Origin: an uncultured Gammaproteobacteria bacterium
Lineage (GTDB): Bacteria; Patescibacteriota; Microgenomatia; Daviesbacterales; UBA10151
Direction of reading: 5' to 3'
Length of the DNA stretch: 64,000 nucleotides
Assembly: GCA_964500725.1 (NCBI GenBank)
Contig: CAZCNP010000004.1
Location: 12,139 to 76,138, forward strand
Made by a program: the position numbers and the translations under genes. Below are positions 3,474-61,774 of this stretch, in pieces. The notes under the pieces were generated by a model. That model had not been told where the DNA came from. It was given only the letters and a program-made list of their open reading frames with translations, and made no database searches. Numbering within the stretch: the stretch's first letter is position 1; every line of letters begins with the position of its first letter.

Positions 3474-4454
3474 ATGAAAGCAACAGCCATTGGACCATCA
3501 GATATAGCACTAACCAAATACTGGGGCAGAAAAGATGAGGTCTTAAGACTACCTGAGAATGGTTCTATTTCCATGGTTTTAAGCAATCTTTTAACCACCA
3601 CCACAGTAGAGTTTTCCCCAGAATATAAAAAAGACCAAATTACTATAAATGGTGGAGGCTTGGAAGAGGGAGAAGCAGAAAGGGTTATTAAACATTTGGA
3701 CAGAATCAGAAAAATAGCCAAAATTGACTTAAAAGCTAAAGTAGTTTCCAAAAACAACTTTCCTATTGGCACAGGCCTGTCTTCTTCTGCTTCTGGCTTT
3801 GCTGCTTTAACTGTAGCTGCAAGCAGCGCAGCAGGTTTAAATTTATCAGAAAAAGAGTTATCAATTCTTTCTAGACAGGCCTCTGGATCCTCTTGTCGGC
3901 CTATTGCTGGGGGTTTTGTAGAGTGGCTGGATGGAAATACTTCCAATACTTCTTATGCCAAAACAATATTCCCTAAAAACTGGTGGAATATTGCAGATGT
4001 TGTAGCTGTTGTTTCTGAAGGCAGAAAAGAAGTACCTACTTCCACAGGTCATGCAAAAGCTCAATCCTCTCCTTTTCTAAAACTTAGGTTATCCAGAATG
4101 AAAGAAAAAAATAGATTAGTTAAAAAATATATTAAAGAAAGGGACTTTAAAGCTTTGGGAGAGTTAATAGAACAAGAAGCTTTAGAGCTGCATACCATCA
4201 TGCTAACCCAATACCCTCCTTTAATTTATTGGACTCCTGGAACTTTAACTATTATGAAATTAGTCTCACACTGGAGAGCAGAAGGAATTCCAGTTTACTT
4301 TACTATCAATACTGGTCAAAATATTCATCTTTTAACAGAGCAAAAAAATGTAGAAAAAGTTAAAGACAAACTTAAAAAGTTAGATTTTGTCAAAAATATT
4401 ATAGTAAATACTGCAGGCGAAGGAACCAGACTTTCTAAAGAACATTTATTTTAA
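3474..4454 (+). CDS. mvaD: diphosphomevalonate decarboxylase
   Basis: The motif IALTKYWGRKD matches the mevalonate decarboxylase consensus (IALIKYWGKRD-type). It carries the GHMP motif GLSSSASGFAAL and is 326 aa. Confidence 0.85.
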   Translation: MKATAIGPSDIALTKYWGRKDEVLRLPENGSISMVLSNLLTTTTVEFSPEYKKDQITINGGGLEEGEAERVIKHLDRIRKIAKIDLKAKVVSKNNFPIGTGLSSSASGFAALTVAASSAAGLNLSEKELSILSRQASGSSCRPIAGGFVEWLDGNTSNTSYAKTIFPKNWWNIADVVAVVSEGRKEVPTSTGHAKAQSSPFLKLRLSRMKEKNRLVKKYIKERDFKALGELIEQEALELHTIMLTQYPPLIYWTPGTLTIMKLVSHWRAEGIPVYFTINTGQNIHLLTEQKNVEKVKDKLKKLDFVKNIIVNTAGEGTRLSKEHLF

Positions 4455-4459
4455 GGTTA

Positions 4460-4700
4460 ATCTATAAAGCTATCAACACTAGGGAATCTTATCCTGCTTA
4501 GTAAACTTGCTCTTTCTATAGGGTCAGGCACATTTAAGAGGACAGGCTGCTGATCACCTGTCCTGGTAGAACGGAGAACACTAGCTCCTGAAACTACCTC
4601 CACTGTAGGCTCCTCACGGGATACTACCGCTTGGTCGTCACGAACTATCCTAAACTGTCCTTCACCTAGACTTTCTGTGCGTATTCCCATAGGTGTAAGA
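4460..4700. ncRNA. candidate structured non-coding RNA (unclassified); GC-rich island in a convergent intergenic gap
   Basis: GC content is locally much higher than the flanking sequence. There is an 8-bp hairpin aggacagg/cctgtcct plus several smaller hairpins. The 5' end (cactagggaat) and the 3' end (attcccatag) can pair into a closing helix. Confidence 0.3.
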
Positions 4701-4732
4701 AATGTACCTATATCAGGAATACTAAATTCCGC

Positions 4733-5254
4733 TTATCTTGTCAATAACTCAGCTGCTTCTCGTGCCCAAGGAGTATAATTTTGGGGGTTTTTGGCAATAT
4801 CTGCTAAAAAATCTCCTCTTTTTATCCATTTATACTCATAGCCTATATTTTGATCCAAATTAACTCCTCCATCATACTCACCAACTATAAGGTAACAGTG
4901 CTCATTCTCGCAAAGCTTCCCATATTGGGCAAAATAATTAAATACTCCCACTCTTTTTAAATTCTCAACTTTATCAATTTCCCATTCTTCTTGCAAGCAT
5001 CTTAAAGTTGCCTCTTCTATAGTCTCATCTGAACTATCAGACTTATGCAGAGGATGGGTAGCAGCTGTTAAATCCCAAATATTATCAAATATTTTATGTT
5101 TTCTTTTTTGCAGCAGCACTTCTCCTTTAGAATTATACAGAAGCGCAGCGATTGCCAGATGACGCTGACCTTTCCCTGTATGCCCTTTTTCTTTAAGAAT
5201 ATATTCTAAAAACTTTCCATTATCATCACAAGCTAAAATTATTTGTTTATTCAT
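4733..5254 (-). CDS. idi: probable isopentenyl-diphosphate delta-isomerase (type 1, Nudix family)
   Basis: A Nudix-box-like segment ETIEEATLRCLQEEWEI is present, with a conserved His/Cys/Glu pattern. The gene is next to the mevalonate genes. Confidence 0.55.
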   Translation of the reverse strand: MNKQIILACDDNGKFLEYILKEKGHTGKGQRHLAIAALLYNSKGEVLLQKRKHKIFDNIWDLTAATHPLHKSDSSDETIEEATLRCLQEEWEIDKVENLKRVGVFNYFAQYGKLCENEHCYLIVGEYDGGVNLDQNIGYEYKWIKRGDFLADIAKNPQNYTPWAREAAELLTR

Positions 5255-5267
5255 AAAAAATTTATTC

Positions 5268-6053
5268 TTAATGAGAAAATCCTAACAGCTGAAGAGATGT
5301 TACTGCCAGCCAAATTACCAAAACACCCAACAGCAGAAGTATCGTCTCAAGAAGCGCTACTGCTCTTTTATCTTCATTATGAATTTCTGGTATTAAATCT
5401 GATGCTGCTATATAGATAAAAAACCCAGCAGACAAAGATAGTAAAATAGGCAAAAACACCTCAATTGATTCTCCCACAAGATATGTAAGCAAAGCTCCAA
5501 CTAAGGCTGCCAGGGCACTTAAGAAATTTACCAGTAAAACTTTACTTCTTTTTATACCCCGATGAAGCAATATGCCAAAATCCCCTATTTCTTGAGGTAT
5601 TTCATGAGCTGCCACAGCCAAGGTGGTAACTATACCTAAAGGAATACTTACCAAAAAAGTGGCTGCAATTACTACTCCGTCAATAAAGTTATGCACACTA
5701 TCCCCTAAAATCACCAAAGGCACAATAGATTTGGCCTCTTTTTTTAATTCTGCAGAGGTATGACCATGATGGTGATGAAACCAGTGAATAAATCTTTCAA
5801 GTAAAAAGAAGGATAAAATGCCTATAAGCGTCCAGAGAAAAATATTAGTTCCTCCAAACTCCTCCGCATGTTCTTGCGCTTCGGGAAGCAAATCAAAAAA
5901 AGCTGTTCCAAGCAAAGCTCCAGCTGCAAACGAAGCAAGGTAATGAGATATTCTAATTGCCAGCTTTTCTCTTGCCAGCAATAGCACCCCTCCTACTAAA
6001 GCCACTACACTGCCAAGCAGGGTAAAAATTACAATATATGCCAAAACACTCAT
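5268..6053 (-). CDS. zupT: ZIP family zinc transporter
   Basis: A polytopic membrane protein with the ZIP motifs HNFIDG and HEIPQEIGDFG and a His-rich loop HHHHGH. Confidence 0.8.
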   Translation of the reverse strand: MSVLAYIVIFTLLGSVVALVGGVLLLAREKLAIRISHYLASFAAGALLGTAFFDLLPEAQEHAEEFGGTNIFLWTLIGILSFFLLERFIHWFHHHHGHTSAELKKEAKSIVPLVILGDSVHNFIDGVVIAATFLVSIPLGIVTTLAVAAHEIPQEIGDFGILLHRGIKRSKVLLVNFLSALAALVGALLTYLVGESIEVFLPILLSLSAGFFIYIAASDLIPEIHNEDKRAVALLETILLLLGVLVIWLAVTSLQLLGFSH

Positions 6054-6094
6054 TTCCCCATTCTAATTATAAATGAATTACTTGTCAAAGGAAA

Positions 6095-6847
6095 CTATTT
6101 TAAAAGAGGGTCTATAATTGCTTGAAAAGCAGAGTAAGGCTGAGCCCCAACTATAATTTGACCTGTGAAAGTACCCGAAGGATCAGATTTGCCAATGAAA
6201 AAAGATGGTGTCCCAGAAACTCCTGCTGTGCTACCATCAGAAGTATCCTTTTTAATCTCCTCTGCATATTTTGAAGAATCTGCGCAAGTTTTTAGAGTTG
6301 TTTGATTAATACCCTCCTCAGCAGCCAACTGGTAAACTTCGTCTTTGGTTAAACCATTTCCGTTAGATTTGGTTTTGGTAAATATGGCATCATGAAAGCT
6401 AAAGTAAGCGCTATCTCCCCCTTGTTCCCTGGCACAATTTGCTGCATTTGCTTCAAAAGTAGCCATGGGTTCATGAAAAGGCAAAGGATAATCCCTAAAA
6501 ACCATTTTAACTTTGCCTGTATCTATATAGTCTTTTTTCAACACAGGATAAACTTGATCAAAGTGTCTTTTACAAAAAGGGCACTCATAATCTGAAAATT
6601 CTACCAAAGTTACTGGAGCATCTTTATCTCCTATAACAGGGTCATCATCAACTGATATTTTAGCTGAGGTAGGTTGTGGGGCTTCCTGTTGAGGAAGGGC
6701 TGAAGCTGCAGGAACATTAGCTTGGGTACCTGCTGTCTTAGAACCTAATTTTATAATTCCTCCATGCATTAATATAGATACAGAAATTACAAAAGAACCT
6801 AGTAAAATTGCCACAGGGGTCGTTAAAAAGGAGCTTGATTTATCCAT
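6095..6847 (-). CDS. DsbA-family thiol:disulfide oxidoreductase (thioredoxin fold), membrane-anchored
   Basis: An N-terminal transmembrane segment is followed by the thioredoxin active site CPFC in the context EFSDYECPFCKR. Confidence 0.75.
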   Translation of the reverse strand: MDKSSSFLTTPVAILLGSFVISVSILMHGGIIKLGSKTAGTQANVPAASALPQQEAPQPTSAKISVDDDPVIGDKDAPVTLVEFSDYECPFCKRHFDQVYPVLKKDYIDTGKVKMVFRDYPLPFHEPMATFEANAANCAREQGGDSAYFSFHDAIFTKTKSNGNGLTKDEVYQLAAEEGINQTTLKTCADSSKYAEEIKKDTSDGSTAGVSGTPSFFIGKSDPSGTFTGQIIVGAQPYSAFQAIIDPLLK

Positions 6848-6917
6848 CGATATCTTAGTTTAAAAGAAGTAATATTTTATGTCAATGCACAGATACAAAT
6901 CTACGATTATTGTCTAT

Positions 6918-7181
6918 TTAGTCACTTAATCGTCTAGCAAGATCCTTAAAATCAATAATAGCGCCTTGCTGTTGTAATGATCCACCAAGTCTATCATCAC
7001 ATTTATTACATATAATTACTCCATCCGGACAAATCTCTTGAGCTTTTGTAGTATCGCGCAACACATCAACCACTTGTTCTGCAGTTAAAGACCTTTCTTG
7101 AACCACCTCACCTGCTAGTCCACTACTTTGACGACATACCCATGTGTGGGAAACTGGTGGTAAACATTTTTCTTTACCCAT
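6918..7181 (-). CDS. hypothetical small Cys-containing protein
   Basis: An 87-aa protein with five cysteines including CNKC. GC content is higher than in the surroundings. Confidence 0.3.
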   Translation of the reverse strand: MGKEKCLPPVSHTWVCRQSSGLAGEVVQERSLTAEQVVDVLRDTTKAQEICPDGVIICNKCDDRLGGSLQQQGAIIDFKDLARRLSD

Positions 7182-7217
7182 AAATATTGATATACTAAAT
7201 TATACTATAAAAGCGCT

Positions 7218-8042
7218 ATGGAAGCATCTTTGCAGTTACCAACTGAGCTTCGAGAAGCATTAACTTCTAGTCCAGTTTTGAGAATAGAAGCTAACGGTTA
7301 TAGAACAAGAGAAATTGTTCCTGTTAGAACCAATGACAAACTGGCTGATTGGCATTCTCTTAAAGGTGAAATTAACGTGGAAAAGGGTCCCCAGAGACAT
7401 TCAACTGATCCAAGTTTTGAAGTACTTTTTGACCCACTGACCCAACGATGGCTCAAGATAGCTCCTCCACATGCTCATCATTTTAATACCTATGTCCACA
7501 AACTCCAACTCAGCTCTCGTATCGGCCGTATTGCCTTGGATATCGCTGGTCTTCCAGATTTAGCAAATCAATTTGAAGATGCTAAAGTTGAAATTCGAGG
7601 AAGAGAAACATTTGGGTTTATATCACCTCATATTGGTCCTTCTTTAGAATATCTGCTTAAAACCTTAAAATCAGGCTCCTCAAAACCTACAGAAGCAAAA
7701 CAATTCTTGACGGCAGTCTATACTCAAGCTTTTTGGCAGGCACTCCGGCTTTATTTAGGTTATGGATTTTGGACTTATGATCCTAATCCAGGTAATATTC
7801 TTATTCGTAATGGTGATAATAAATTATTTATAGCTCCAATAGATTTTTCAAGTCCCGGGCAAGCTAAGGAAAATAAATTCAGCCAAGTGCCCATTATAGA
7901 CCGTAGGAGGCAATACCTACAAAAAAACCTCGATAACCTATACCACATTTTTAATAAGCAATGCGGTATAAATGGAATACCTTCCTTTAGTTACCCAGCC
8001 CAGCAGATAGGCGAGCTTATTGAAATTCAACTTTTATCTTAA
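7218..8042 (+). CDS. hypothetical protein with protein-kinase-like motifs
   Basis: The segment DPNPGNILI resembles a kinase catalytic loop, and a downstream IAPIDFSS resembles a DFG-like segment. GC content is higher than average. The assignment is weak. Confidence 0.4.
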   Translation: MEASLQLPTELREALTSSPVLRIEANGYRTREIVPVRTNDKLADWHSLKGEINVEKGPQRHSTDPSFEVLFDPLTQRWLKIAPPHAHHFNTYVHKLQLSSRIGRIALDIAGLPDLANQFEDAKVEIRGRETFGFISPHIGPSLEYLLKTLKSGSSKPTEAKQFLTAVYTQAFWQALRLYLGYGFWTYDPNPGNILIRNGDNKLFIAPIDFSSPGQAKENKFSQVPIIDRRRQYLQKNLDNLYHIFNKQCGINGIPSFSYPAQQIGELIEIQLLS

Positions 8043-8046
8043 ATTA

Positions 8047-8631
8047 TTAGTTAAACTGGTTCTGAGCTGACTCTATTCCCTGATCAAATAATATCTCTAT
8101 TACTTGTATTCCCTGTTTGATCATTTGTTTTACCTCAGATTTTTCCTTTGGTAAGAATTTCTCCAACACAAACTTTTCTGCAGAAAAAGAAATTCTTTTA
8201 TGTTCACCACTGTGAGATTTTTCATTACCTATCCCCAATCGCACCCTAATAAATTGGTCTGTTCCCAAAGAATTAATAATTGACTCCACCCCATGATGCC
8301 CTGCCCCACTGCCTCCTAACCTTACTTTAATCTTCCCTAAAGGTAAATCCAAATCATCATGAACAATTATTACATCCTCAGGAGGAATTTTATAGAAATT
8401 AACAATAGCAGCAACTGCAACTCCAGACTCATTCATATAAGTTTGAGGTCTTGCCAGAATTAAATCATTACCAACTTTTATCATCTCTGCCTTAAATTTA
8501 GCCTCAAAATCCCAATCTTCCAGATTATTTTTCCTTCTAAATTCCTCCAAAAGCTCAAATCCAAAATTATGCCTGGTATTTTTATACTTATCACCAGGAT
8601 TACCCAGCCCAACAATGAGAATCTTTTTCAT
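8047..8631 (-). CDS. pth: peptidyl-tRNA hydrolase
   Basis: The N-terminal motif LIVGLGNPGDKYKNTRHNFGF is the Pth signature. Confidence 0.9.
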   Translation of the reverse strand: MKKILIVGLGNPGDKYKNTRHNFGFELLEEFRRKNNLEDWDFEAKFKAEMIKVGNDLILARPQTYMNESGVAVAAIVNFYKIPPEDVIIVHDDLDLPLGKIKVRLGGSGAGHHGVESIINSLGTDQFIRVRLGIGNEKSHSGEHKRISFSAEKFVLEKFLPKEKSEVKQMIKQGIQVIEILFDQGIESAQNQFN

Positions 8632-15825: not shown

Positions 15826-18800
15826 TCAAGAAGAAACATATTCATCCCAGCTTTTGATTTGTAGATCTTCCATCTTTTTGGAAGCTAATGCTGAAGCTAA
15901 AAGTTCTGCTGCTTGTAAATTGGTAATAAGTGGTATACCTAAATCAACACAATTTCTTCTGATAATATACCCTTCTGTTTCCCCCATAGCTTGCTTTCCT
16001 TCAGATATATTTATTACCAAATCTATTCCCTCCTTTAAAAGATCCAAAACTGAAGGATGTTGATCTTCAAAAATCTTATAGATTCTGTTATTTTTAACAC
16101 CATTTTCAGTTAAAAACTTTGAGGTATGCTCTGTGGCATATATCTTTAACCCTAGACTTGCTAACACCTTAGCAGAAGCTAGCAAATCTAGCTTGTTTTT
16201 ATCTCCTCCAATTGATAAAAGAACCGAATTTTTAGGCATTTTAAAACCTGTTGCCAAAATTGCCTTCAAATACCCTTCTTGTAAATCATCCCCAAAACAA
16301 GCAACTTCTCCCGTGGAAGACATCTCTACCCTAAGCCTTGGATCTGCTCCTTTGATTCTACTAAAAGAAAACTGGGGTGCTTTTACACCTACATAATCTA
16401 AATCTATGGTTTTAAAATCACCTTTTATCTCTTCTCCTAACATAACCCTGGTTGCTAGCTCTACAAAATTATAGCCTGTGACTTTGGAGACAAATGGAAA
16501 AGAACGAGATGCTCTCAAATTCAGCTCTATCACCATGATTTTATTATCTTTGGCTAAAAACTGAATATTAAATGGGCCATTAATTTCTAAGGCTTTTAAA
16601 ATTTTTCTGGTAGCATTTTTCACTCTTCTAACAGTCTCCAGATATAATCTTTGAGGAGGCAGAACAATGGTTGCATCCCCTGAATGCACACCAGCATTTT
16701 CTACATGTTCAGAAATGGCATAAATTAACAAATCCCCTTTTACCCCTACTCCATCAACCTCAATTTCTTTAGCACCCTCTACGAATTTAGATATCACCAC
16801 AGGATGTTCGGTAGATATATCTGAAGCGCTTTTGAGAAACTTTTTCAACTCAGTAGCAGCATAGGCCACATTCATAGCAGATCCTGATAAAACATATGAG
16901 GGTCTAATTAGCACTGGATAGCCTATTTTTTTGGCAAAGGAAGCTGCATCCTCAACACTTTTTAGGCTTTGCCAGGCTGCTTGATCTATTCCTAATTTAT
17001 CCAAAAGCTTGGAGAACTTATCCCTATCTTCTGCCTGATCAATACTCTGAGCAGAGGTGCCTAGGATTTTATAGCCTGTCTGAAAACACTTCATAGCCAA
17101 ATTATTTGGCACTTGTCCGCCAAAACCTAAAACCAAACTAGCATCTTTTTCTATATCATAAATATCACTAACCCTCTCGTAGGTTAGCTGCTCAAAGTAT
17201 AGCTTATCTGCGCTATCATAATCTGTAGAAACTGTTTCAGGATTACAGTTGATAATAATGGTTTCTAGACCCTTAGAACGCAATGTTTGCGCACAAGTCA
17301 CAGAACACCAGTCAAATTCTACGGATGAACCAATTCTGTAAGGTCCAGAGCCTAAAACAATAGCCTTGTTAGTAGGCTCTTGCTTTTGCTCGCTTACCTC
17401 TGATTTATCTCCATGATAAGTTAAATACAAATAATTAGTTTTTGCTGGATATTCTCCTGCTAAAGTATCAATATGTTTTACCTGAGGAACTATTCCATGC
17501 TTTTTCCGATAATCTCTTATTTCCTGCTCACTTTTTTTGAACTTTCTGGCTATTACTTTATCTGAAAATCCCAACTTCTTTGCTTCCAGAATGGTTTTAT
17601 AGATGTTGGCTTTTAGCTGTTGGCTTTTAGCTGCTAATGGCAAATGGCCAATAGCCAGTAGCTCCCTCTCAAACTCGACCATCTCCTTAATTTGGTGTAA
17701 AAACCATGGATCAATACCTGTTGCTTCATAGATACTATCTACTGACTCCCCTTTTTCAAACCTTTTGGCTATTGCAAACAGTCTCTCTGTGGTAGGCAGC
17801 AGTTTAGTATCATCTACCTCATTTTCCAGCAGTCCATCCTGCCCAGTCTCCAACATTCTAATTGCTTTTTGCAAAACCTCAGGAAAACTTCTGCCTATTG
17901 CCATAACTTCTCCTACACTTTTCATTTCAGAACCTATTTGCTGTCTGGCTCCCACAAATTTTTGCAAATCCCATCTGGGAATTTTTACCACGATATAATC
18001 CAAACTTGGTTCAAAAAATGCAGAAGTCGATAAAGTCACACTGTTTTTTAACTCAGTTAGGTTGTAACCTAAACCAATTTTGGCAGCAATATAAGCCAGT
18101 GGATACCCGGTAGCTTTTGAGGCCAAAGCAGAAGAACGAGATAGCCTGGCATTAACTTCAATCACTCTATAGTCATTATTTGCAGGATTTAGGGCAAATT
18201 GAATATTACACTCTCCTATAATCCCTAGATGTTCAATTACTTGTAGGGAAAGTTTTCGCAAATAATAATACTGATAACTATTCAAGGTCTGTGAAGGCGC
18301 AACTACAATGCTTTCTCCTGTATGAATCCCCAGAGGATCAAAATTTTCCATGTTACAAACAGTAATTTTATTGCCTTGATTGTCCCTGACAACTTCATAT
18401 TCTATTTCTTTCCAATGCTTTAGATACTCCTCAACAGCAATTTGTGGGGCTTGTTTTAAAGCCAGTGCTACCATTTTGACAAATTCATCTTTACTATTTG
18501 CCACCCCAGACCCTAATCCCCCTAAAGAAAACCCTGATCTGATCAAAAGCGGATACCCCAGCTCCTCAGCAATCTTTAAAGCTTCATCAAGCGTGCGGGC
18601 AAATCCACCTTTTGGAACTTTAACCCTGATATTGCCAAGTTCGCGGGCAAACAGCTCTCTATCTTCGGTAATTTGGATACTTTTTACAGAAGAGCCTAAC
18701 ACTTTAATATTCCATTTTTTAAATACACCCATCTTATCCAAAGCCAACCCGCAATTTAGAGCAGTTTGCCCTCCAAAACCTAGGAAAATTCCATCTGGTT

Positions 18801-19035
18801 TTTCTTTCTCAATTACTTTTTGCACAAAATATGGGGTGACAGGCAGGAAATAAATTTTCTTTGCAAGCTCTTTTGAGGTTTGAATGGTGGCAATATTTGG
18901 GTTTATCAAAACTGCATCTATCCCTTCTTCTCTTAAGGCTTTCAGAGCTTGCGAACCAGAATAATCAAACTCACCTGCCTCGCCAATTTTTAATGCCCCA
19001 GAACCTAAAACAAGTACTTTTTTTAGCTTAATCAT
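15826..19035 (-). CDS. carB: carbamoyl-phosphate synthase large subunit
   Basis: A 1069-aa protein with two ATP-grasp halves. The N-terminus VLVLGSGALKIGEAGEFDYSGSQA matches CarB. Confidence 0.95.
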   Translation of the reverse strand: MIKLKKVLVLGSGALKIGEAGEFDYSGSQALKALREEGIDAVLINPNIATIQTSKELAKKIYFLPVTPYFVQKVIEKEKPDGIFLGFGGQTALNCGLALDKMGVFKKWNIKVLGSSVKSIQITEDRELFARELGNIRVKVPKGGFARTLDEALKIAEELGYPLLIRSGFSLGGLGSGVANSKDEFVKMVALALKQAPQIAVEEYLKHWKEIEYEVVRDNQGNKITVCNMENFDPLGIHTGESIVVAPSQTLNSYQYYYLRKLSLQVIEHLGIIGECNIQFALNPANNDYRVIEVNARLSRSSALASKATGYPLAYIAAKIGLGYNLTELKNSVTLSTSAFFEPSLDYIVVKIPRWDLQKFVGARQQIGSEMKSVGEVMAIGRSFPEVLQKAIRMLETGQDGLLENEVDDTKLLPTTERLFAIAKRFEKGESVDSIYEATGIDPWFLHQIKEMVEFERELLAIGHLPLAAKSQQLKANIYKTILEAKKLGFSDKVIARKFKKSEQEIRDYRKKHGIVPQVKHIDTLAGEYPAKTNYLYLTYHGDKSEVSEQKQEPTNKAIVLGSGPYRIGSSVEFDWCSVTCAQTLRSKGLETIIINCNPETVSTDYDSADKLYFEQLTYERVSDIYDIEKDASLVLGFGGQVPNNLAMKCFQTGYKILGTSAQSIDQAEDRDKFSKLLDKLGIDQAAWQSLKSVEDAASFAKKIGYPVLIRPSYVLSGSAMNVAYAATELKKFLKSASDISTEHPVVISKFVEGAKEIEVDGVGVKGDLLIYAISEHVENAGVHSGDATIVLPPQRLYLETVRRVKNATRKILKALEINGPFNIQFLAKDNKIMVIELNLRASRSFPFVSKVTGYNFVELATRVMLGEEIKGDFKTIDLDYVGVKAPQFSFSRIKGADPRLRVEMSSTGEVACFGDDLQEGYLKAILATGFKMPKNSVLLSIGGDKNKLDLLASAKVLASLGLKIYATEHTSKFLTENGVKNNRIYKIFEDQHPSVLDLLKEGIDLVINISEGKQAMGETEGYIIRRNCVDLGIPLITNLQAAELLASALASKKMEDLQIKSWDEYVSS

Positions 19036-20099
19036 AAGTTTTCCAAAAATTCATCAAATAAATATCCTGCATCAACTGGACCTGGGGAGGCTTCCGGGTG
19101 AAACTGAACTGCCATAAATGGCTTATTTTTATGTCTAATCCCCTCGTTTGTGCCATCATTTAGGTTAACAAACCACTCAATCCAATCTGCGCTTAAAGAA
19201 GTTGTATCAACTGCAAAACCATGATTTTGACTGGTTATGATAGCTTTTTTGCTAATTTGATCCTTTACTGGCTGATTATGACCCCTGTGACCAAATTTTA
19301 ATTTAAAAGTTTTCCCCCCAGCTGCCAAAGCAATAATTTGACTGCCTAAACAAATGCCAAAAGTGGGGATATTTTTATCTAGAAGTTTTTTAACATTTTC
19401 AATAGTTTTTTTAGCTTGCATTGGATCACCTGGACCATTTGAAACCATTACTCCATCAAACTTTAACCCCTCAGCTATAGGATCACAATCCCAAGGCACA
19501 ATTATAACCTGCACTCCCCTTTTAGTCAGGCTTCTGACAATATTTCCTTTAGTTCCACAATCTATTAAGATAATATTTTTCTTGCCGCTGCCAACAACTT
19601 CAATCTTCTCAACACTTACATTAGGCAAAACATTTTCCTTATTAGGATCATATTGAAGACGAGAATTGAATTGTCCATTTTCAATTTTCAATTTTCCATT
19701 TATTTCCATTCTTCCTAACATCACCCCATGGTCTCTTAGTTTAATAGTTAAAGCCCTGGTATCAATACCTTGCAAAGCAGGGATTTTTTCTTCTCTAAGC
19801 CAATCGCCTAAAGTTTTTTGGCTTTCAAAATGTGATAGGTTTTCAATATAATTTTGGACAATCAAACCCTTAACACGAATTTTGTTTGATTCCCAAAAAT
19901 CTTTTACTGGCACTCCATAATTTCCTTGTAAAGGATAAGTTAGAACTAAAATCTGCCCAAAATACGAAGGATCTGTCAATGATTCGGGGTAACCTACCAT
20001 TCCGGTGTTAAAAACTACCTCGCCTGAGGTGGAACCCTCAAACCCAAAACTTTGTCCTAAAAAAACTGTCCCATCGGACAGAATTAATCTACCCTGCAT
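19032..20099 (-). CDS. carA: carbamoyl-phosphate synthase small subunit (glutamine amidotransferase)
   Basis: The class I GATase triad context GICLGSQ is present, with a CarA-like N-terminal domain. The gene is translationally coupled to carB. Confidence 0.95.
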   Translation of the reverse strand: MQGRLILSDGTVFLGQSFGFEGSTSGEVVFNTGMVGYPESLTDPSYFGQILVLTYPLQGNYGVPVKDFWESNKIRVKGLIVQNYIENLSHFESQKTLGDWLREEKIPALQGIDTRALTIKLRDHGVMLGRMEINGKLKIENGQFNSRLQYDPNKENVLPNVSVEKIEVVGSGKKNIILIDCGTKGNIVRSLTKRGVQVIIVPWDCDPIAEGLKFDGVMVSNGPGDPMQAKKTIENVKKLLDKNIPTFGICLGSQIIALAAGGKTFKLKFGHRGHNQPVKDQISKKAIITSQNHGFAVDTTSLSADWIEWFVNLNDGTNEGIRHKNKPFMAVQFHPEASPGPVDAGYLFDEFLENL

Positions 20100-20115: not shown

Positions 20116-21051
20116 CTATTTCAATCTTCCCAAAACTAAAGACAATAATGCTTCTCTTATATATAAACCATTCCTGGCTTGCTTAAAATAAATTGCGTTT
20201 GGATGCTCATCAAGGGATGAGTCAATTTCATTAATCCTGGGTAAAGGATGCATAAGTTTTAATCCTTTATCTAAGTATTTCTTAAAAGAAGCATCTAAAA
20301 TGAATTCATCTTTAACTTTTTTATATTCCTTTAAATCTTTAAACCTTTCTATTTGCACCCTGGTTTGATAAAGAAAATCAGCGTCCAAATCTTTTGGCAA
20401 ACGGTCATATTCTTCATACACCACTCCTCTTTCATCTAACACTTTGGTAAACTCCTCTGGCATTTTTAAGCTTTGGTGGGAGATAAAAATTTGTTTGACT
20501 TTAAAATGGGATAAAGCCACAGAAAGGGCATGAACAGTTCTGCCATATTTCAAATCACCCATAAAAGCTACTATAATTCCATCTAACTTGCCACCCTCTT
20601 TCATCATGGTGTAAAGATCAAGCATTGTTTGGGTAGGGTGTTGATTTGGGCCATCCCCAGCATTAATAACTGGAATTTGGGCTACTTCTGCTGCCTTCTT
20701 TGCTGAAAATGACTCCGGGTGTCTAATGATTAAAACATCAGCATAAGCATCCATAATCCTGATAGTATCGGAGAAGGTCTCACCTTTATGAATACTGGTT
20801 GACTCCGGATCATTAAAGCCTATTATGCCCATGCCTATTTTCTGAGCAGCAGATCTGAAAGATTGTTCTGTTCTGGTGGAAGGCTCAAAAAATAACACTG
20901 CTGCGATTTTACCCTGGGCAATGGTGTAGTTAGATCTATCACTTTTAACATATTGGGGATCAAATTTTTTGGCAGTTTTTAAAACATGAAGCAATTCTTC
21001 TTTGGAAAAATCACTTATATCTATAATGTCTCTGCCTTTAAAGCTTTTCAT
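20116..21051 (-). CDS. pyrB: aspartate carbamoyltransferase catalytic subunit
   Basis: The carbamoyl-phosphate binding motif STRTE/Q and the HPLP motif are both present. The protein is 311 aa. Confidence 0.9.
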   Translation of the reverse strand: MKSFKGRDIIDISDFSKEELLHVLKTAKKFDPQYVKSDRSNYTIAQGKIAAVLFFEPSTRTEQSFRSAAQKIGMGIIGFNDPESTSIHKGETFSDTIRIMDAYADVLIIRHPESFSAKKAAEVAQIPVINAGDGPNQHPTQTMLDLYTMMKEGGKLDGIIVAFMGDLKYGRTVHALSVALSHFKVKQIFISHQSLKMPEEFTKVLDERGVVYEEYDRLPKDLDADFLYQTRVQIERFKDLKEYKKVKDEFILDASFKKYLDKGLKLMHPLPRINEIDSSLDEHPNAIYFKQARNGLYIREALLSLVLGRLK

Positions 21052-21060
21052 AAAACCTTT

Positions 21061-21090
21061 AAAAAACCGCCCATTAGGCGGTCACTTTTT
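21061..21090. terminator. bidirectional rho-independent terminator or attenuator hairpin immediately upstream of pyrB
   Basis: A 6-bp GC-rich stem accgcc/ggcggt with a 5-nt loop is flanked by A6 on one side and T5 on the other. It lies about 15 nt upstream of the pyrB start codon. Confidence 0.5.
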
Positions 21091-21203
21091 ATCTATTAAA
21101 TTGTATATTTACAATGCATTTCACCATAACAATTTTCTAAATCTCCTGCTAGTTTAGTGCTAAAACCTCAATCTGTCAATATCTGCCTGATATTTAAGAA
21201 GAG

Positions 21204-21935
21204 CTATAACTCTTGATCAGGATCAGCTTTAAATTCCATCATACCCTGAACTTCTCCTCTGAGTACCTCAATATTACTCCTATAGAGCTCTTTCTTAGTC
21301 AATACAAATTCTGTTTTATCATCCCATAAATCAGGACCCTCTGTAATAAATCTATATCTTTCTTCTGGTAATTCTCTTCCTAATAATACCCAACCAAAAT
21401 CAAAGATAAATAGTTTATTGGCTCCATCAGGCTTTAGAATAAAACCCACTGAGTCTACTGATAATTTTATACCCTTGTCTGTTGCCTGCTTGCTTAAAAA
21501 TCCAATATCTTGAGGATCTGCAGGATCAAAATAGTGATTAAAGTCAGTTTCAGCCAATATCTTTCTCCAATTATCATTTAACACTGCATATCCTGATTCC
21601 ATAAAAAGATTCTTTTTACCCTCAGTTAGGTCAGTCATTAATATCCCCAGCATACCACTTGCATCTCTGCTCATCCTAAAAGTTGCAGGAACAGGTAATC
21701 CTGCCTCTTTTGCTGCCTGATGTCTCTCAACTAGAATTCCTGCTGTCTGGGGCAGATCTAAAACCTTATGGATTAAGTGAACCTTCCGTCTTCGTTCTCC
21801 TCTGGCTAGGGATACGTCTACATCAAAAATTTTACCCTCTGTACTACCTGGTCGTTCTCCAAGTTGCACAAGCTCCACTTTTGTTGGTCTGTAATCACCT
21901 CCTTTAATAACTTCAGTCTCTTTACGTTGATCCAT
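21204..21935 (-). CDS. hypothetical protein (possible kinase-like fold, DFG-like segment)
   Basis: A 243-aa protein with higher-than-local GC. The segment KLFIFDFGWVL is DFG-like. It lies in the accessory insert between pyrB and pyrC. Confidence 0.45.
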   Translation of the reverse strand: MDQRKETEVIKGGDYRPTKVELVQLGERPGSTEGKIFDVDVSLARGERRRKVHLIHKVLDLPQTAGILVERHQAAKEAGLPVPATFRMSRDASGMLGILMTDLTEGKKNLFMESGYAVLNDNWRKILAETDFNHYFDPADPQDIGFLSKQATDKGIKLSVDSVGFILKPDGANKLFIFDFGWVLLGRELPEERYRFITEGPDLWDDKTEFVLTKKELYRSNIEVLRGEVQGMMEFKADPDQEL

Positions 21936-21980
21936 AGTTATTCAGCACCATAAACTTCCCCAGGCAAGACTGTAATAAAC

Positions 21981-22244
21981 TTACGGTGATAATATACCCT
22001 TTTTAATATACTGTTTAATTAAAGACTGGTAGGGTATATTGATTTCATTAGCCTTCTCTTTAATCCTATTTAAAAGATATTCTGGGATCCTAATTGAAAT
22101 AGACCTAGTAGTTGGTTTTAAATTAGGAAAACTAACCCTTTCAAAATCAGAAGGTTCAAAATATTCAGAGAGATCTAATTTCCACCAGAACTCCCGTTCT
22201 TCATCCTCATTCTTAAATTTTGGTATCTTAAGCTGTTTCTTCAT
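21981..22244 (-). CDS. brnA: BrnA-type antitoxin
   Basis: The segment EDEEREFWWKLDLSEYFE and a C-terminal RHH-like region match the BrnA family. The gene is adjacent to a BrnT-like ORF. Confidence 0.65.
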   Translation of the reverse strand: MKKQLKIPKFKNEDEEREFWWKLDLSEYFEPSDFERVSFPNLKPTTRSISIRIPEYLLNRIKEKANEINIPYQSLIKQYIKKGILSP

Positions 22245-22422
22245 AATTCAACACCTCCTTTTTGTTAATATCTCTTACTGAAATTATCCTAATTTTCTTT
22301 CTTCTATAGGTAAACACTATGTAAAGTAATCTACCCTTCTTAGTCTTACCTAATATAATAAATCTTTCTTCATCTTTAGAATGAAATACGTCTTTATAGA
22401 TAACTTTTAAACAGACGCACAC
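22228..22422 (-). CDS. brnT: BrnT-like (DUF497) toxin, apparently N-terminally truncated (GTG start)
   Basis: The segment DEERFIILGKTKKGRLLYIVFTYRRKKIRIISVRDINKKE matches the conserved C-terminal two-thirds of BrnT. An in-frame stop lies immediately upstream of the start. Confidence 0.55.
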   Translation of the reverse strand: MCVCLKVIYKDVFHSKDEERFIILGKTKKGRLLYIVFTYRRKKIRIISVRDINKKEVLNYEETA

Positions 22423-22666
22423 ATCCCCTTGTTACTACAGACAAACCAGAATGGTTTTTTCTTGGATAAGGTCTAAAATACTCACCAAATATCCTGTTTA
22501 AATCCGTATTTTTTATATAATCTAAACTATACACTCTACTATTTCTGTCTTCGAGAAAATCCCAAAGAGATATTGGATCTGTTGGTAATTCCAAATACCC
22601 ATCACGCTGTGGAATATCAGGAAATAAAAATTCTCTCTGGGGTGTAATATCGGGTGACGTATTCAT
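22394..22666 (-). CDS. hypothetical protein
   Basis: A 90-aa ORF overlapping the start of the BrnT-like gene in another frame. It has no clear motif. Confidence 0.25.
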   Translation of the reverse strand: MNTSPDITPQREFLFPDIPQRDGYLELPTDPISLWDFLEDRNSRVYSLDYIKNTDLNRIFGEYFRPYPRKNHSGLSVVTRGCVRLFKSYL

Positions 22667-22670
22667 ATCC

Positions 22671-23015
22671 CTAAGTATATTCCTGAATTATTTTTTCAAT
22701 CTGTTGCTTGAGTACTGGTAAATCTTCTTTAATTGTCTTCCAAAGTATATCTAAATCAACTCCAAAATATTCATGTATTATCTTATTCCTCATACTAACC
22801 ATCTTGCCCCAGGGGATATCAGAGTATTTTTCTGCAGCTTCTTCAGGTATATTTCTGGCAGCCTCGCCCAGAATTTCTAGATTTCTTACAACAGCATCTA
22901 TTGTTTTCCAATCATTCTCCAAATCATTTAAAGAGAAATCTTTTGTGTAATCTTCAATTCTTAAAATAGAAGTTAGAATATCCTGTAGATAAAGAGTCAG
23001 CTCTCTTTTAGACAT
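22671..23015 (-). CDS. hepT: HepT (DUF86) RNase toxin
   Basis: The R(x4)HxY motif appears as RNKIIHEY. The protein is 114 aa and lies downstream of an MntA-type nucleotidyltransferase gene. Confidence 0.8.
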   Translation of the reverse strand: MSKRELTLYLQDILTSILRIEDYTKDFSLNDLENDWKTIDAVVRNLEILGEAARNIPEEAAEKYSDIPWGKMVSMRNKIIHEYFGVDLDILWKTIKEDLPVLKQQIEKIIQEYT

Positions 23016-23298
23016 AAATTACTTCTTGTAGGATTTCATTCTTAATGGCTGGTTTTAATGCCTTTTTGGTAACTAAATCAACTTTTTTACCAATTAATTT
23101 ACCTAAAAATTCTTCCAGTTCAATAAATTTAAAAAATCCTAAGGGTTTTGAGAATTCAACTAAAATATCAACATCACTTCCTTTTTTCTCTTCTCCTCTG
23201 CTGACAGAACCAAAGACGCCAATACTTTCTACACCATATTTGTTCCTTAAGGTGCTCATATTTTTATCAATTATGCTTGTAATTTGTTTTATCTGCAT
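23008..23298 (-). CDS. mntA: MntA-type nucleotidyltransferase antitoxin
   Basis: The minimal nucleotidyltransferase motif GSVSRGEEKKGSDVDILV is present. The likely start is the internal MQIKQ, because the longer ORF would overlap the pyrC start. Confidence 0.8.
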   Translation of the reverse strand: MQIKQITSIIDKNMSTLRNKYGVESIGVFGSVSRGEEKKGSDVDILVEFSKPLGFFKFIELEEFLGKLIGKKVDLVTKKALKPAIKNEILQEVIYV

Positions 23299-23305
23299 AG
23301 AAATA

Positions 23306-24373
23306 TTATACCACCACTTTCCCATATGGACCAAAGATATTTTGGCCATCGAAGGCAAGTTGACCTCTTAATACCACCTTTTTTATCCTTCCAGCCACTT
23401 CCATTCCAGCAAACGGCGTCCAGCCACATTTTGTTTGCAAATTCTTATCAGTAATTGTATATTTTTCTTCTAAATCTACTTCCACAAAAGTCTCAGGCTG
23501 CTCCTCTATCTTAAAAATCTTTTTCTGGTTTGTTGAAGTCAATTCTATCAGTCTTTCAATAGTTAGTTTTCCTTCATTTACTGCAGTTAACATTAAAGGC
23601 AAAGTTGTTTCCAAACCTGGTACTCCATAGATGGGTTTATCTGAATTTAATTTTTCCTCTTTAGTATGAGGAGCATGATCTGAGGCAATAATATCCACTA
23701 CTCCATCTGTAATTGCCTCCCACAAAGCATCTTGGTCTTGCCTGCTTGCCAGAGGCGGCCTCATCATGCCAAATGGACCCAGTTTTTTAACATCTTCCTC
23801 AGTTAAAAATAGATGATGAGCTGCTACTTCACAACTTACTTGTAATCCATCTTTTCTAGCTTGTTTAATAAGTTCAATTTCTTGCGCCAAAGACACATGG
23901 CAAACATGCAGTGTATTACCAAATTTTCTGGCTAAATTTATGGCTTTTTGCAAAGTATCCCCTTCTGCATGAACCATAAGTGGTTTATCCTTAGGCCAAT
24001 TTTTAAATACTTCATCCAAAACACTATCATTTTCCATCAGTAAATCTCCAGTAGTTGGATTCATATAAACTTTAAGTCCAAAAACTTTGTCTTTTACCTG
24101 ATTAAAAAACCCAATACTTTTGAGACTTGCTCCAAAATGGAATCCTACATCAGCATAAATTCTGCCTTTGGCTAAATCTTTCTTTTGCTGTAAAGTCTCT
24201 GGAGAAATGGTGGCAATAGGATTGTTGGGCATGTCCAAAACGCTAGTTATCCCCCCTGCAATAGCTGCTTTTGTTCCTGTCTCAAAGTCCTCTTTTTGAG
24301 TTGCTCCAGGCTCTCTTAAGTGAACATGAACATCAACAAGTCCTGGTAATTTAATAAGTTGCATTAACCACAT
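23306..24373 (-). CDS. pyrC: dihydroorotase
   Basis: The metal-binding motif VDVHVHLREPG is present, followed by the typical DMPN and AHHLFL regions. Confidence 0.9.
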   Translation of the reverse strand: MWLMQLIKLPGLVDVHVHLREPGATQKEDFETGTKAAIAGGITSVLDMPNNPIATISPETLQQKKDLAKGRIYADVGFHFGASLKSIGFFNQVKDKVFGLKVYMNPTTGDLLMENDSVLDEVFKNWPKDKPLMVHAEGDTLQKAINLARKFGNTLHVCHVSLAQEIELIKQARKDGLQVSCEVAAHHLFLTEEDVKKLGPFGMMRPPLASRQDQDALWEAITDGVVDIIASDHAPHTKEEKLNSDKPIYGVPGLETTLPLMLTAVNEGKLTIERLIELTSTNQKKIFKIEEQPETFVEVDLEEKYTITDKNLQTKCGWTPFAGMEVAGRIKKVVLRGQLAFDGQNIFGPYGKVVV

Positions 24374-24680: not shown

Positions 24681-24902
24681 TTATCTTAAAGCTCTCATAA
24701 AATCTTCCAGACTAATGTTGGCTTTTTTAATTTGAGCTTTTAAAAGAAATTGGGCTACTTCTTTATGAAGTGGAATGGACAAAGAAGGAGCATTTTGTTT
24801 TTGCAAAATAGCATGATCTCCAGAAGTATGAACATGAATATAGCCAAACTTTAAGAATGCTTTGACAGCATTTTTCCCAGAAATATTTGCGAGTTTAGGC
24901 AT
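24681..24902 (-). CDS. hicA: HicA-family mRNA interferase toxin
   Basis: A 73-aa protein with the context FGYIHVHTSGDHAIL, which is HicA/YcfA-like. It lies downstream of a HicB-like gene. Confidence 0.65.
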   Translation of the reverse strand: MPKLANISGKNAVKAFLKFGYIHVHTSGDHAILQKQNAPSLSIPLHKEVAQFLLKAQIKKANISLEDFMRALR

Positions 24903-25137
24903 TGAATACAGGAACTAAAGTATCTATAGATCTTTTAGCAAACTCTGAACCCTTTTCTTTTTTCAAATTCATTGCTTCCATATAGGCTCTAATTGCTTTT
25001 TCAACATTTTCTAATGCTTCTTTCTTAGTTTTCCCTTGAGACATACAACCATATAAATTCACCACATCAGCTACATAGCCTTTATATGTTTTATCATAAG
25101 TTAATTTAATTAAGAAGTCTAGTTTATCCTTTTGCAT
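24895..25137 (-). CDS. hicB: HicB-family antitoxin
   Basis: An 80-aa protein overlapping hicA by 8 nt. Its profile matches the HicB/UPF0150 fold. Confidence 0.6.
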   Translation of the reverse strand: MQKDKLDFLIKLTYDKTYKGYVADVVNLYGCMSQGKTKKEALENVEKAIRAYMEAMNLKKEKGSEFAKRSIDTLVPVFNA

Positions 25138-52868: not shown

Positions 52869-54056
52869 ATGACAGATTTCTATAAAAATCTAACAAACTC
52901 ACTGTCTAATAAAAAGCCTTTTGTAATCTCTTCAGGAGAAGGAGCGTATTTGACTATTGATGGTAAAAAAAGGCTGAATTTTTGTTCTAGTCACTACTTA
53001 GGTTTGGCTGTAGCAAACAGAATCAAAAAAGCCATTGTAAAAGCAGTAGATAAATATGGGGTAGGTACTGGCTACCGGACATTGGCAGGCAACCATATTT
53101 TGCACCTGCAACTAGAAGAGGCTTTGGCTAAATTCAAAAAAGCAGAAGCAGCAATTATTTTAACAGGAGGTTATATGGCCAACTGCGCTGCCATCCAAAC
53201 TATCATAGGCAAAGAAGATATTGTGATCTCTGATGAGTTAAATCATGCCTCCATTATTGATGCTGTAAGACTTTCCCAGGTTAAAAATAAGCTGATTTAT
53301 AAGCATAAAGATACGGGTGAGCTGGAAGAGAGACTCAAAGAAGCCATCAAACTACAAAAAACCCTTAAAGGAAATGGTGAAAAACCAGTGATTTTAATTG
53401 TGACTGATGGAGTTTTTTCGATGGATGGAGATTTAGCTCCCCTGCCAGAAATTGTGAAACTGGCTAAAAAATACCAAGCTTTAACCATGGTTGATGATGC
53501 GCACGGTGAAGGAGTTTTAGGCAAAGGCGGCAGGGGCATTGTTGATCACTATAGCCTGCATGGCCAAGTAGATATTGAAGTAGGCACTCTGTCTAAAGCA
53601 TTTAGTGTCATGGGTGGGTTTATTACTGGCCAAAAGGTATTGATTGATTATTATAAACAAAAAGCCAGGCAATTTTTATTCTCCAATGCTTTAACAATTC
53701 CGGATACTGCTGCTATTTTAGAAGGAGTGAAAATTTTATCAGCTTCAGATAAACTGGTTAAAACTTTATGGAGTAACACAAATTATCTAAAATCAGAGTT
53801 TAAAAAATTAGGCTTTGATATAGGAGAATCTCTTACTCCGATTACCCCAGTTATGCTGCCAAATGAAGATATTGCAAAAGAGTTTAGCTTAAAACTTTTT
53901 AATTTAGGAGTGCTAGCTACCCCTATTGTTTTCCCAATGGTAGCCAAAGATAAAGCCAGAATCAGAGTTATCCCTTCAGCAGCTCACACCAAATTAGATA
54001 TGGAATTTGGTATTAAGGCGTTTGAAAAAGTCGGCAAAGCTTTAAAAGTAATTTAA
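52869..54056 (+). CDS. kbl: 2-amino-3-ketobutyrate CoA ligase (glycine C-acetyltransferase)
   Basis: Conserved blocks read [37 protein letters not shown] and the PLP-lysine region GTLSKAF. These run in parallel with known Kbl proteins. Confidence 0.85.
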
Positions 54057-61700: not shown

Positions 61701-61774
61701 TGGTAGGCCCGGAAGGAATCGAACCCTCGTCTTGACTGTATAAGAATCAGGTATTACCATTATACGACGGGCCT
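61701..61774 (-). tRNA. tRNA-Ile (UAU)
   Basis: A 74-nt cloverleaf with encoded CCA. The acceptor is AGGCCCG/CGGGCCT with A73, the D-arm GTAT-AATGGTA-ATAC, the anticodon arm TGATT-CTTATAC-AGTCA (anticodon TAT) and the T-arm GAGGG-TTCGATT-CCTTC. Confidence 0.6.

Follow-up and report, generated by a model that had tools for sequence, protein, structure and literature searches.

This report concerns the interval between the pyrimidine genes pyrC and pyrB in a stretch of 64,000 nucleotides from a Candidatus Daviesbacteria genome (the window), and above all the short leader which lies between the pyrB promoter and the pyrB start codon. From position 15826 to position 26194 every gene of the window is on the minus strand, as are all of the window genes and leader elements described below. 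The pyrB gene (20116–21051) specifies the 311-residue catalytic chain of aspartate carbamoyltransferase [TIGR00670, 3.4e-102; PF02729; PF00185] and is followed by carA (19032–20099) and carB (15826–19035), these two being the distal genes of the pyrB-carA-carB unit; carA-carB are syntenic 3' of pyrB in every Daviesbacteria locus. The product of pyrC (23306–24373) is a dihydroorotase of 355 residues [TIGR00857, 1.9e-84], a normal length for the clade (352–361 residues), with orthologues in 11 related loci; recF and a HicAB pair are found upstream of it. Between pyrC and pyrB lies a toxin-antitoxin (TA) island, co-directional and nearly gapless after pyrC, which comprises a HepT/MntA pair, the sequence bearing a 90-residue frame (orf90), a BrnT remnant with BrnA, and a 243-residue orphan (orph243). 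The reading frames and the hairpin in front of pyrB are where the initial annotation, made from the sequence alone, had placed them, and Pfam and NCBIfam confirm its family assignments.

The locus was compared with 25 others from Candidatus Daviesbacteria and related Microgenomates (L001 to L025), recovered in a one-genome-per-species scan with PyrB (60–94% identity); counts given for the leader and the promoter are out of 26 sequences, that is, the window and these 25 loci. The predicted pyrB promoter (21151–21179) consists of a -35 hexamer TTGACA (21179–21174), a 17-nt spacer and a -10 hexamer TAAACT (21156–21151), with 10 of 12 matches. The arrangement TTGACA-N16–18-TAAA(C/A)T is present in all 26 genomes, including two which possess no leader; in the other 24 it is followed by an invariant ATG, the AU-rich stretch of a putative upstream open reading frame (uORF), a hairpin and T6–8.

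In the window the uORF, MVKCIVNIQFNR, has 12 codons (21089–21127) and extends from an ATG at 21127 to a TAA at 21091–21089, which ends 5 nt before the stem of the hairpin; across the genomes its length is 12 to 27 codons. The ATG follows the -10 box by 11–13 nt in most genomes and by 21–24 nt in the group to which the window belongs, and it is separated from the 5' base of the stem by 43–46 nt in 21 of the 24 leaders (full range 39–49 nt). The frame remains open up to the hairpin in all 24, the other two frames usually closing within 1–37 nt. A composition-matched shuffle puts the chance of a frame staying open at about 0.28 per leader. Clustering by identity was uninformative as a measure of kinship among the leaders, these AT-rich sequences all being linked, and the effective sequence number of the covariance model described below (5.2) was used instead, giving a p of about 1e-3; if the 24 leaders were independent the figure would be 6e-14, an overly optimistic value. 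The stop codon ends between -2 and +5 nt from the stem in 16 leaders, in the loop of the hairpin in five and past the T-tract in three, the full range being from 5 nt before the stem to 40 nt past its 5' base. The predicted peptides bear only a loose likeness to one another (MxK[KR]x[IF][FV]...). Among the motifs of the leader, TTTAATAG (21093–21100 in the window) is conserved best; it is read as FNR in some genomes and as LIV in others, so that part of the conservation is at the nucleotide level. The pyrB gene itself is mostly not preceded by a Shine-Dalgarno (SD) sequence (GAAAAAAATG).

The hairpin has the features of an intrinsic terminator (stem 21083–21065; T6 21066–21061). It is composed of eight pairs, GACCGCCU-AAU-GGGCGGUU, AAU forming the loop, with a folding energy of -12.1 kcal/mol (z = -2.75 versus shuffled sequences). 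The pyrB ATG is 9 nt beyond the end of the T6 run and 13 nt beyond that of the stem, so that the hairpin lies in the path of every pyrB transcript. Across the genomes the leader hairpins have a GC stem of 7–8 pairs (-10.5 to -14.3 kcal/mol) followed by T6–8. Pairing and covariation were read from an alignment fitted to an explicit-structure covariance model, R1; a leader alignment made with MAFFT only had misplaced the hairpin, and RNAalifold applied to it gave only three pairs. In the model-fitted alignment (25 sequences) 95% of the stem cells are paired, versus 77% in shuffled sequences and 35–55% when the partners are slid, and five of the seven stem pairs display compensatory changes, e.g., CCGCC/GGCGG versus CCCGC/GCGGG. 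R1 detects exactly one copy per locus, always 5' of pyrB, in the 510 kb searched. A weak match at 53750–53822 of the window [E 0.8] is in coding sequence, has no hairpin and was set aside as a chance hit. No conserved second helix or antiterminator was apparent in the alignment or in the fold of the window leader, where the terminator forms independently, and no Rfam family matched the leader; the model of the PyrR site, RF00515, gave no hit at the gathering threshold in the whole window, nor was there any at E <= 10 in 20950–21300.

The leader is kept whatever the upstream context, be it pyrC, TA genes, argF or a gene on the opposite strand (L014, L022 and L025), and it is also kept in L023, amid an unrelated neighbourhood with an arginyl-tRNA synthetase. 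It therefore goes with pyrB rather than with the insert; being downstream of pyrB's own promoter, the hairpin is not the terminator of an upstream gene. Judging from these alignments, we regard it as largely resolved that the hairpin is a pyrB leader element, presumably an attenuator, which was not brought in with the insert. The two genomes in which the whole leader is missing are those of L011 (9960–10010) and L017 (5100–5150). There pyrB (TTG GGC ATC...) begins 9 nt past the -10 TAAACT, at the exact position occupied by the uORF ATG in the other 24 genomes, which suggests that this position can serve as a translation start. These two loci appear to be natural attenuator-less variants, and would imply near-leaderless initiation of pyrB in both.

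The pyrB start is usually 0–13 nt past the T-tract. Eight loci (L004, L005, L006, L007, L010, L013, L018 and L019) have extra inserts of 24–182 nt at this point, which are GC-rich, palindromic and similar to miniature inverted-repeat transposable elements, with sequences such as GTCATCCTGAGCGAGCG..GAGTCGAAGGATC and TTCTGGACA.GCCAGAATGACA. They lengthen the 5' untranslated region, the leader being kept.

What sequence comparison reveals as conserved, then, is a promoter, a terminator crossed by every pyrB transcript, and a short open reading frame ending at that terminator. From this we consider it rather probable that the window carries a variable TA island beside a separate, conserved pyrB leader which acts as a pyrimidine-sensing attenuator. 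RNA polymerase starting from the pyrB promoter would be stopped by the hairpin and T-tract unless closely followed by a ribosome on the uORF. A ribosome at or near the uORF stop codon would cover the 5' arm of the stem and block formation of the hairpin, and transcription would proceed into pyrB-carAB. When uridine triphosphate (UTP) is scarce, the polymerase would be slowed in the U/A-rich leader and T-tract, the ribosome would catch up and read-through would rise, by analogy with pyrE and pyrBI.

Read-through in the rph-pyrE attenuation of Bonekamp et al. (1984) reportedly depends on the ribosome reaching the stop codon that ends the upstream reading frame. The present leader resembles the UTP-modulated, translation-coupled rph-pyrE attenuator of Escherichia coli in having an intrinsic terminator just before a pyrimidine gene, and an upstream frame whose stop codon adjoins the terminator stem. 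It differs in that a dedicated uORF of 12–17 codons with its own promoter takes the place of the full-length gene located upstream of pyrE, in that pyrB-carAB would be the genes controlled, in its host, a member of the candidate phyla radiation (CPR), and in the lack of any sequence similarity. Experiments in E. coli had termination fall from about 90% to less than 10% once the stop codon was shifted from 28 to 5 bp before the terminator, an effect which needs coupled translation and vanishes beyond about 27 nt; amino-acid attenuators have more than 20 bp between the leader reading frame and the terminator, while the pyrBI leader peptide runs through its own attenuator (PMC4824070). Attenuation of E. 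coli pyrE depends on the closeness of the rph stop codon to the attenuator (PMC2784333). The uORFs were judged by the E. coli distance, namely a stop codon no more than about 27 nt upstream of the terminator, or beyond the terminator (PMC4824070). Of the features which pyrBI/pyrE-type control calls for, the sequence displays a terminator between the promoter and the pyrB start, a stop codon within reach, and the lack of an antiterminator.

With the pyrBI operon of E. coli and Salmonella the leader would have in common the gene controlled, pyrB, and the succession of promoter, leader reading frame and terminator a few nucleotides before pyrB. In three loci (L012, L016 and L020) the uORF continues through the hairpin, a course also taken by the 44-codon leader peptide of pyrBI. 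Unlike pyrBI, whose leader is about 150 nt long, the leaders described here measure about 75–95 nt, and the uORF has 12–17 codons, usually stops before the stem, has no SD sequence and is perhaps near-leaderless.

A number of points weigh against this attenuator. The transcription start, termination and translation of the uORF are all deduced from sequence. No SD sequence precedes the uORF, whose ATG in most genomes would lie only about 4–6 nt from the predicted transcription start, so that near-leaderless initiation would be needed. Its peptide is poorly conserved, and the attenuator reading does not account for the conservation of TTTAATAG at the nucleotide level. The weakest step is the sensing of UTP: the U fraction of the leaders (0.28–0.50, in runs of 2–6) is not clearly above that of AT-rich intergenic DNA, and sensing is thus proposed by analogy only. 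The geometry of the stop codon is heterogeneous, 8 of the 24 uORFs ending inside or beyond the hairpin. Finally, the 24 leaders are related, and an effective number of about 5 weakens the statistics.

One might suppose instead that the leader terminator is controlled in trans, by a PyrR-like protein or a small-molecule riboswitch, and that the uORF is irrelevant. Attenuation of the PyrR type is the common form of pyr control in many non-enteric bacteria; as known from Bacillus and other Gram-positive bacteria (RF00515), it too employs a terminator located in the pyr 5' leader, and TTTAATAG, which is conserved regardless of frame, could mark a binding site. However, no PyrR motif, anti-terminator or anti-antiterminator was detected in the leader, and neither the PyrR site nor anything else in Rfam was matched even at E <= 10. 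The terminator is the sole conserved structure, and the AU-rich leader contains no sequence able to pair as an antiterminator with the GC-rich stem. Control in trans, which we consider unlikely, would also leave the invariant ATG, the constant distance from ATG to stem and the always-open frame unexplained. The initial annotation had left the choice between a terminator insulating pyrB and a pyr-type attenuator; the pyrB leader is attenuator-like and the insulation a side effect, but there is no match to RF00515 to make it one of the PyrR type.

Another unlikely reading is that the hairpin acts post-transcriptionally, stabilising the mRNA or tuning the translation of pyrB, or that it is a constitutive partial terminator, pyrimidines being sensed elsewhere. 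Sensing could in that case occur by reiterative transcription in the conserved (A/G)TTTATG start region. The initially transcribed sequence of E. coli pyrBI is AATTTG, which the A/G-TTT-ATG following the -10 box recalls, and L011 and L017 keep AATTTG directly before pyrB despite having lost the leader; the end of the stem 13 nt before the pyrB ATG would also suit such a role. On the other hand, a GC stem with T6–8 is a canonical intrinsic terminator, its T-tract is conserved as much as its stem, and this reading would leave both the open frame and the placement of the stop codon unexplained.

There is slightly less to be said for the view that the hairpin is a plain terminator, insulating pyrB from pyrC, the TA genes and orph243, with the leader features being incidental, and we judge this quite improbable. 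It is true that the upstream genes of the window are all co-directional and that there is no other terminator-like site between pyrC and pyrB. The window hairpin moreover has a run of A before it and a run of T after it, and had been described as bidirectional; the flanking A5 and T6 are there, but they are specific to the window genome, the upstream A-run being absent from the other genomes. Against a plain terminator stand the location of the hairpin downstream of a promoter that all 26 genomes share, its equal conservation beside an opposite-strand neighbour (L014, L022, L025) or in an unrelated context (L023), and the 9 nt between T-tract and pyrB ATG, by which every pyrB transcript crosses it. 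As part of a pyrB attenuator, the terminator of the window would also stop read-through transcripts from pyrC and the co-directional insert genes; this insulator role is a side effect and not the origin of the element.

The gene order around the leader is in part very stable. The backbone conserved across the 25 loci reads MFS transporter-recF-orf89 (small, on the opposite strand)-pyrC-[variable]-pyrB-carA-carB-fic, and the distance from recF to pyrB ranges from 139 bp to 8.2 kb. The initial annotation held that pyrC and pyrB would normally be contiguous, and this was not borne out. Contiguity was assessable in 23 loci (L003 reaches a contig end and L023 has a different context): in only three of these (L002, L016, L024) is pyrC about 135 nt from pyrB, eight keep pyrC but have other sequence, 0.7–5.7 kb in length, separating it from pyrB, and in the remaining 12 the stretch from recF to pyrB contains no pyrC. 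Even adjacent pyrC and pyrB have a dedicated pyrB promoter and terminator between them, so the two do not make up one simple operon. The companion proposal, that the segment between the two genes is accessory, is upheld, since the relatives at the 25 loci do not share the gene order of the window: pyrC and pyrB nearly adjoin in the three loci just named, and other cargo fills the gap elsewhere.

This cargo includes MntA/HepT (L009, L018), BrnT/BrnA (L012, L020, L021), HicAB (L010, L012, L021), a ParE-type pair (L006), DUF5615/PIN-like genes (L017, L025), PBECR3/DUF2283 pairs (L015, L016) and also secreted proteins. In three loci argH-argG-argF, specifying the lyase, argininosuccinate synthase and ornithine carbamoyltransferase, are directly 5' of pyrB (L005:6437–9913, L010:6467–9817, L013:2075–4592), and in L021 they are inverted (4293–8114); with these genes upstream of the pyrB leader, carAB has for neighbours both the genes that use carbamoyl phosphate for arginine and those that use it for pyrimidines. 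The recF-pyrB interval of Ca. Daviesbacteria is thus a variable region in which small TA modules, like the other cargo, are acquired, swapped and eroded. The HicA/HicB pair of the window (24681–25137) lies between recF and pyrC, and in L010 and L021 is placed elsewhere relative to pyrC, so that TA turnover affects both sides of this gene. Elsewhere in the window is a gene for tRNA-Ile with the anticodon TAT (61701–61774, minus strand), an uncommon bacterial route to decode AUA.

The proteins of the window were searched against the profile libraries Pfam, NCBIfam, PADLOC and PHROGs. Adjacent to pyrC is a type VII TA module composed of the nucleotidyltransferase antitoxin MntA (96 residues, 23008–23298) [PF01909, 1.4e-17; NF047752] and the toxin HepT (114 residues, 22671–23015) [PF01934, 5.9e-31, full length]. 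MntA overlaps HepT by 8 nt and begins 7 nt past the pyrC stop codon. The start of MntA is most likely the ATG at 23298 and not the TTG at 23358, because the homologues in L009 and L018 have 96 residues and the PADLOC profile PDC-S09 covers residues 1–96 end to end [1.6e-31, 1–96 of 98 profile positions]; a start at the TTG would make MntA overlap pyrC. The HepT/MntA pair proposed in the initial annotation is therefore present with both domains full length, though its MntA, begun at 23358, should be shortened.

In its gene order (MntA then HepT), its overlapping reading frames, its full-length domains and its Rx4HxY (RNKIIHEY) and GSx10DxD (GSVSRGEEKKGSDVD) motifs the pair agrees with known type VII systems. 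It differs in scoring 48–49 bits versus an NCBIfam equivalog cut-off of 60, and so is a divergent member. Full-length HepT homologues are found 3' of MntA in L009 and L018. With its catalytic motifs kept, the module of the window looks intact and functional.

The second module is of type II. Its BrnA/CopG-type antitoxin (87 residues, 21981–22244) [PF12441, 1.6e-29, positions 2–78 of 79] is intact and 81–86% identical to the BrnA proteins of L012 and L020. The toxin gene upstream, BrnT (22228–22422), is a remnant of at most 64 residues, which matches only positions 33–77 of 77 of PF04365 and 33–88 of 90 of phrog_4399; some 36 residues are gone from its N-terminus, and with them the FEWDxGN motif. 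The intact BrnT proteins of L012, L020 and L021 are 97–100 residues long and start with FEWDxGN. An alternative start giving a full-length product is ruled out by two in-frame stops directly upstream, and the N-terminal truncation that had been suspected is thus real. Since the DNA homology to the L020 BrnTA genes starts at window position 22403, with stops and unique sequence upstream, BrnT is a remnant beside an intact antitoxin. As in other BrnT/BrnA systems, BrnA is intact, BrnT lies upstream with an overlapping reading frame and close homologues exist in sister genomes; unlike them, the window toxin has neither its N-terminal third nor its native upstream region. A second, independently N-truncated BrnT (69 residues, L020:2352–2561) lies beside an intact BrnA, so that in this clade the toxin has eroded more than once while the antitoxin was kept.

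In the unique sequence which replaces the 5' end of BrnT is orf90 (22394–22666), a doubtful gene of 90 codons. It had been left unassigned, rightly, for no family was found in the four libraries. Among 5.8 billion proteins it matched only itself, on which account it was rejected as a real conserved gene, and neither tblastn nor blastn gave a match in any related locus. Going by these searches, orf90 probably does not represent a functional gene.

The closest relative, L001 (PyrB 94%), offers some insight into the history of the insert. Its order is pyrC, MntA, HepT residues 1–30, orph243, pyrB, and its DNA lacks window positions 21997–22922, which hold the remainder of HepT together with orf90, the BrnT remnant and BrnA; the junction is clean. 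From this junction we infer that L001 represents a later deletion and that the common ancestor had the fuller arrangement; HepT was cut to 30 residues in L001 by this simple deletion. At L001:8576–8968 MntA contains about 100 extra nucleotides, and no intact reading frame of at least 60 residues was called there. With both the extra nucleotides in MntA and the truncation of HepT, the type VII module of L001 as a whole seems to be in decay.

The MntA/HepT DNA of the window and L001 is 88–92% identical (window 22923–23491). Synonymous divergence (dS) between the two is 0.60 for orph243 and 1.03–1.10 for pyrB, pyrC and carA, which hints that the sequence of the island postdates the divergence of the two lineages, or was exchanged between them. 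No integrase or transposase is found among the window genes at the insert, no tRNA gene is nearby, and the flanks contain no direct or inverted repeats beyond chance-level 14–31-mers. It is very improbable that one recently integrated mobile element carried all six reading frames, as the low GC of the TA genes (0.28–0.32) and the dS of orph243, about half that of the flanking core genes, might indicate, for besides the lack of integrase, tRNA and repeats the modules occur separately and in different combinations among the relatives (L009 and L018 have only MntA/HepT, L012 and L020 only BrnTA), and piecemeal gain and loss fits better.

The last gene before the leader, orph243 (21204–21935), specifies 243 residues which belong to no family in Pfam, NCBIfam, PADLOC or PHROGs. 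It had been described as GC-richer. This is so relative to the AT-rich TA genes, but its GC (0.381) and third-position GC (0.258) are within the range of the 45 large ORFs of the window (0.374 +/- 0.022 and 0.285 +/- 0.034, respectively), and foreign origin on the grounds of GC was rejected. Compared with its L001 orthologue it has no internal stops and a dN/dS (ratio of nonsynonymous to synonymous divergence) of 0.14, so that it is a real gene. A word-indexed search recovered one close homologue (84% identity, in L001), and exhaustive HMMER searches 25 distant relatives of 217–274 residues. Motifs of this family are LGxGxEG, a largely conserved K57, GLPVPxTFR, GILMTDLT, and two invariant residues, D161 and the D179 of DFG. 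A profile of the 25 members gave nothing meaningful against Pfam or the sequences of the PDB. The context of four distant relatives, with housekeeping neighbours (Pth, ribosomal proteins, PLD), offered no link to TA or pyr genes and no functional clue.

An AlphaFold (AF2) model built with the family alignment had a pLDDT of 88.7 and a pTM of 0.87 (a single-sequence prediction, pLDDT 35, was discarded). Foldseek matched it to 49 PDB entries at E <= 1e-3, essentially all of them kinase or pseudokinase domains and with a probability of about 1.0 [E 3e-5 to 1e-3; modest TM-scores of 0.35–0.50]; the outcome with the viral proteins of BFVD was the same. The top matches were the ROP5 pseudokinase and the kinase domains of EGFR and ErbB4. 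The initial annotation had called the orphan kinase-like, and at the level of the fold this agrees with the model and the Foldseek matches; from the model we are confident that orph243 adopts a bilobal, minimal kinase-like fold. With the protein-kinase-like superfamily it shares, besides the bilobal fold, the glycine-rich loop, the beta3 Lys, the catalytic-loop Asp and the DFG Asp. D161 and D179 are 18 residues apart, as are D166 and D184 of PKA. It differs in its size of only about 240 residues, its much reduced C-lobe, and the absence of a conserved alphaC Glu and of the catalytic-loop Asn at D+5, where it has a hydrophobic residue. By the model, orph243 is a new small family inside a known superfamily, one which Pfam does not cover.

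To our knowledge almost nothing is known of metabolic regulation in CPR bacteria (Patescibacteria). These organisms have very few transcription factors and are not culturable alone. A conserved cis-acting leader recognisable from sequence provides a concrete hypothesis for regulation in this group. Searches of the full-text literature found no report of such a pyrB leader in CPR bacteria. In its proposed working it may be likened to the pyrE and pyrBI attenuators, without shared sequence, and in a much shorter form with a mini-uORF. There is also a lesson for annotation, in that a terminator immediately preceding a biosynthetic gene ought not to be taken for the end of the gene upstream. The TA island is in itself ordinary, with type II and type VII modules in varied states of decay, and documents TA turnover and erosion at one chromosomal hot spot, while the kinase-like family adds a small fold family which Pfam does not cover.

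As a tentative proposal, Ca. Daviesbacteria may govern the synthesis of carbamoyl phosphate and pyrimidines by a minimal attenuator which requires no regulatory protein, the terminating ribosome of a near-leaderless uORF of 12–17 codons masking the terminator a few nucleotides before pyrB, and orph243 may define a new family of minimal kinase-like proteins found only in such bacteria. If this is true, L011 and L017 would be natural attenuator-deletion variants, the minimal attenuator might perhaps occur in other CPR bacteria as well, and the enterobacterial logic of "repression without repressors" would be extended to ultra-small genomes.

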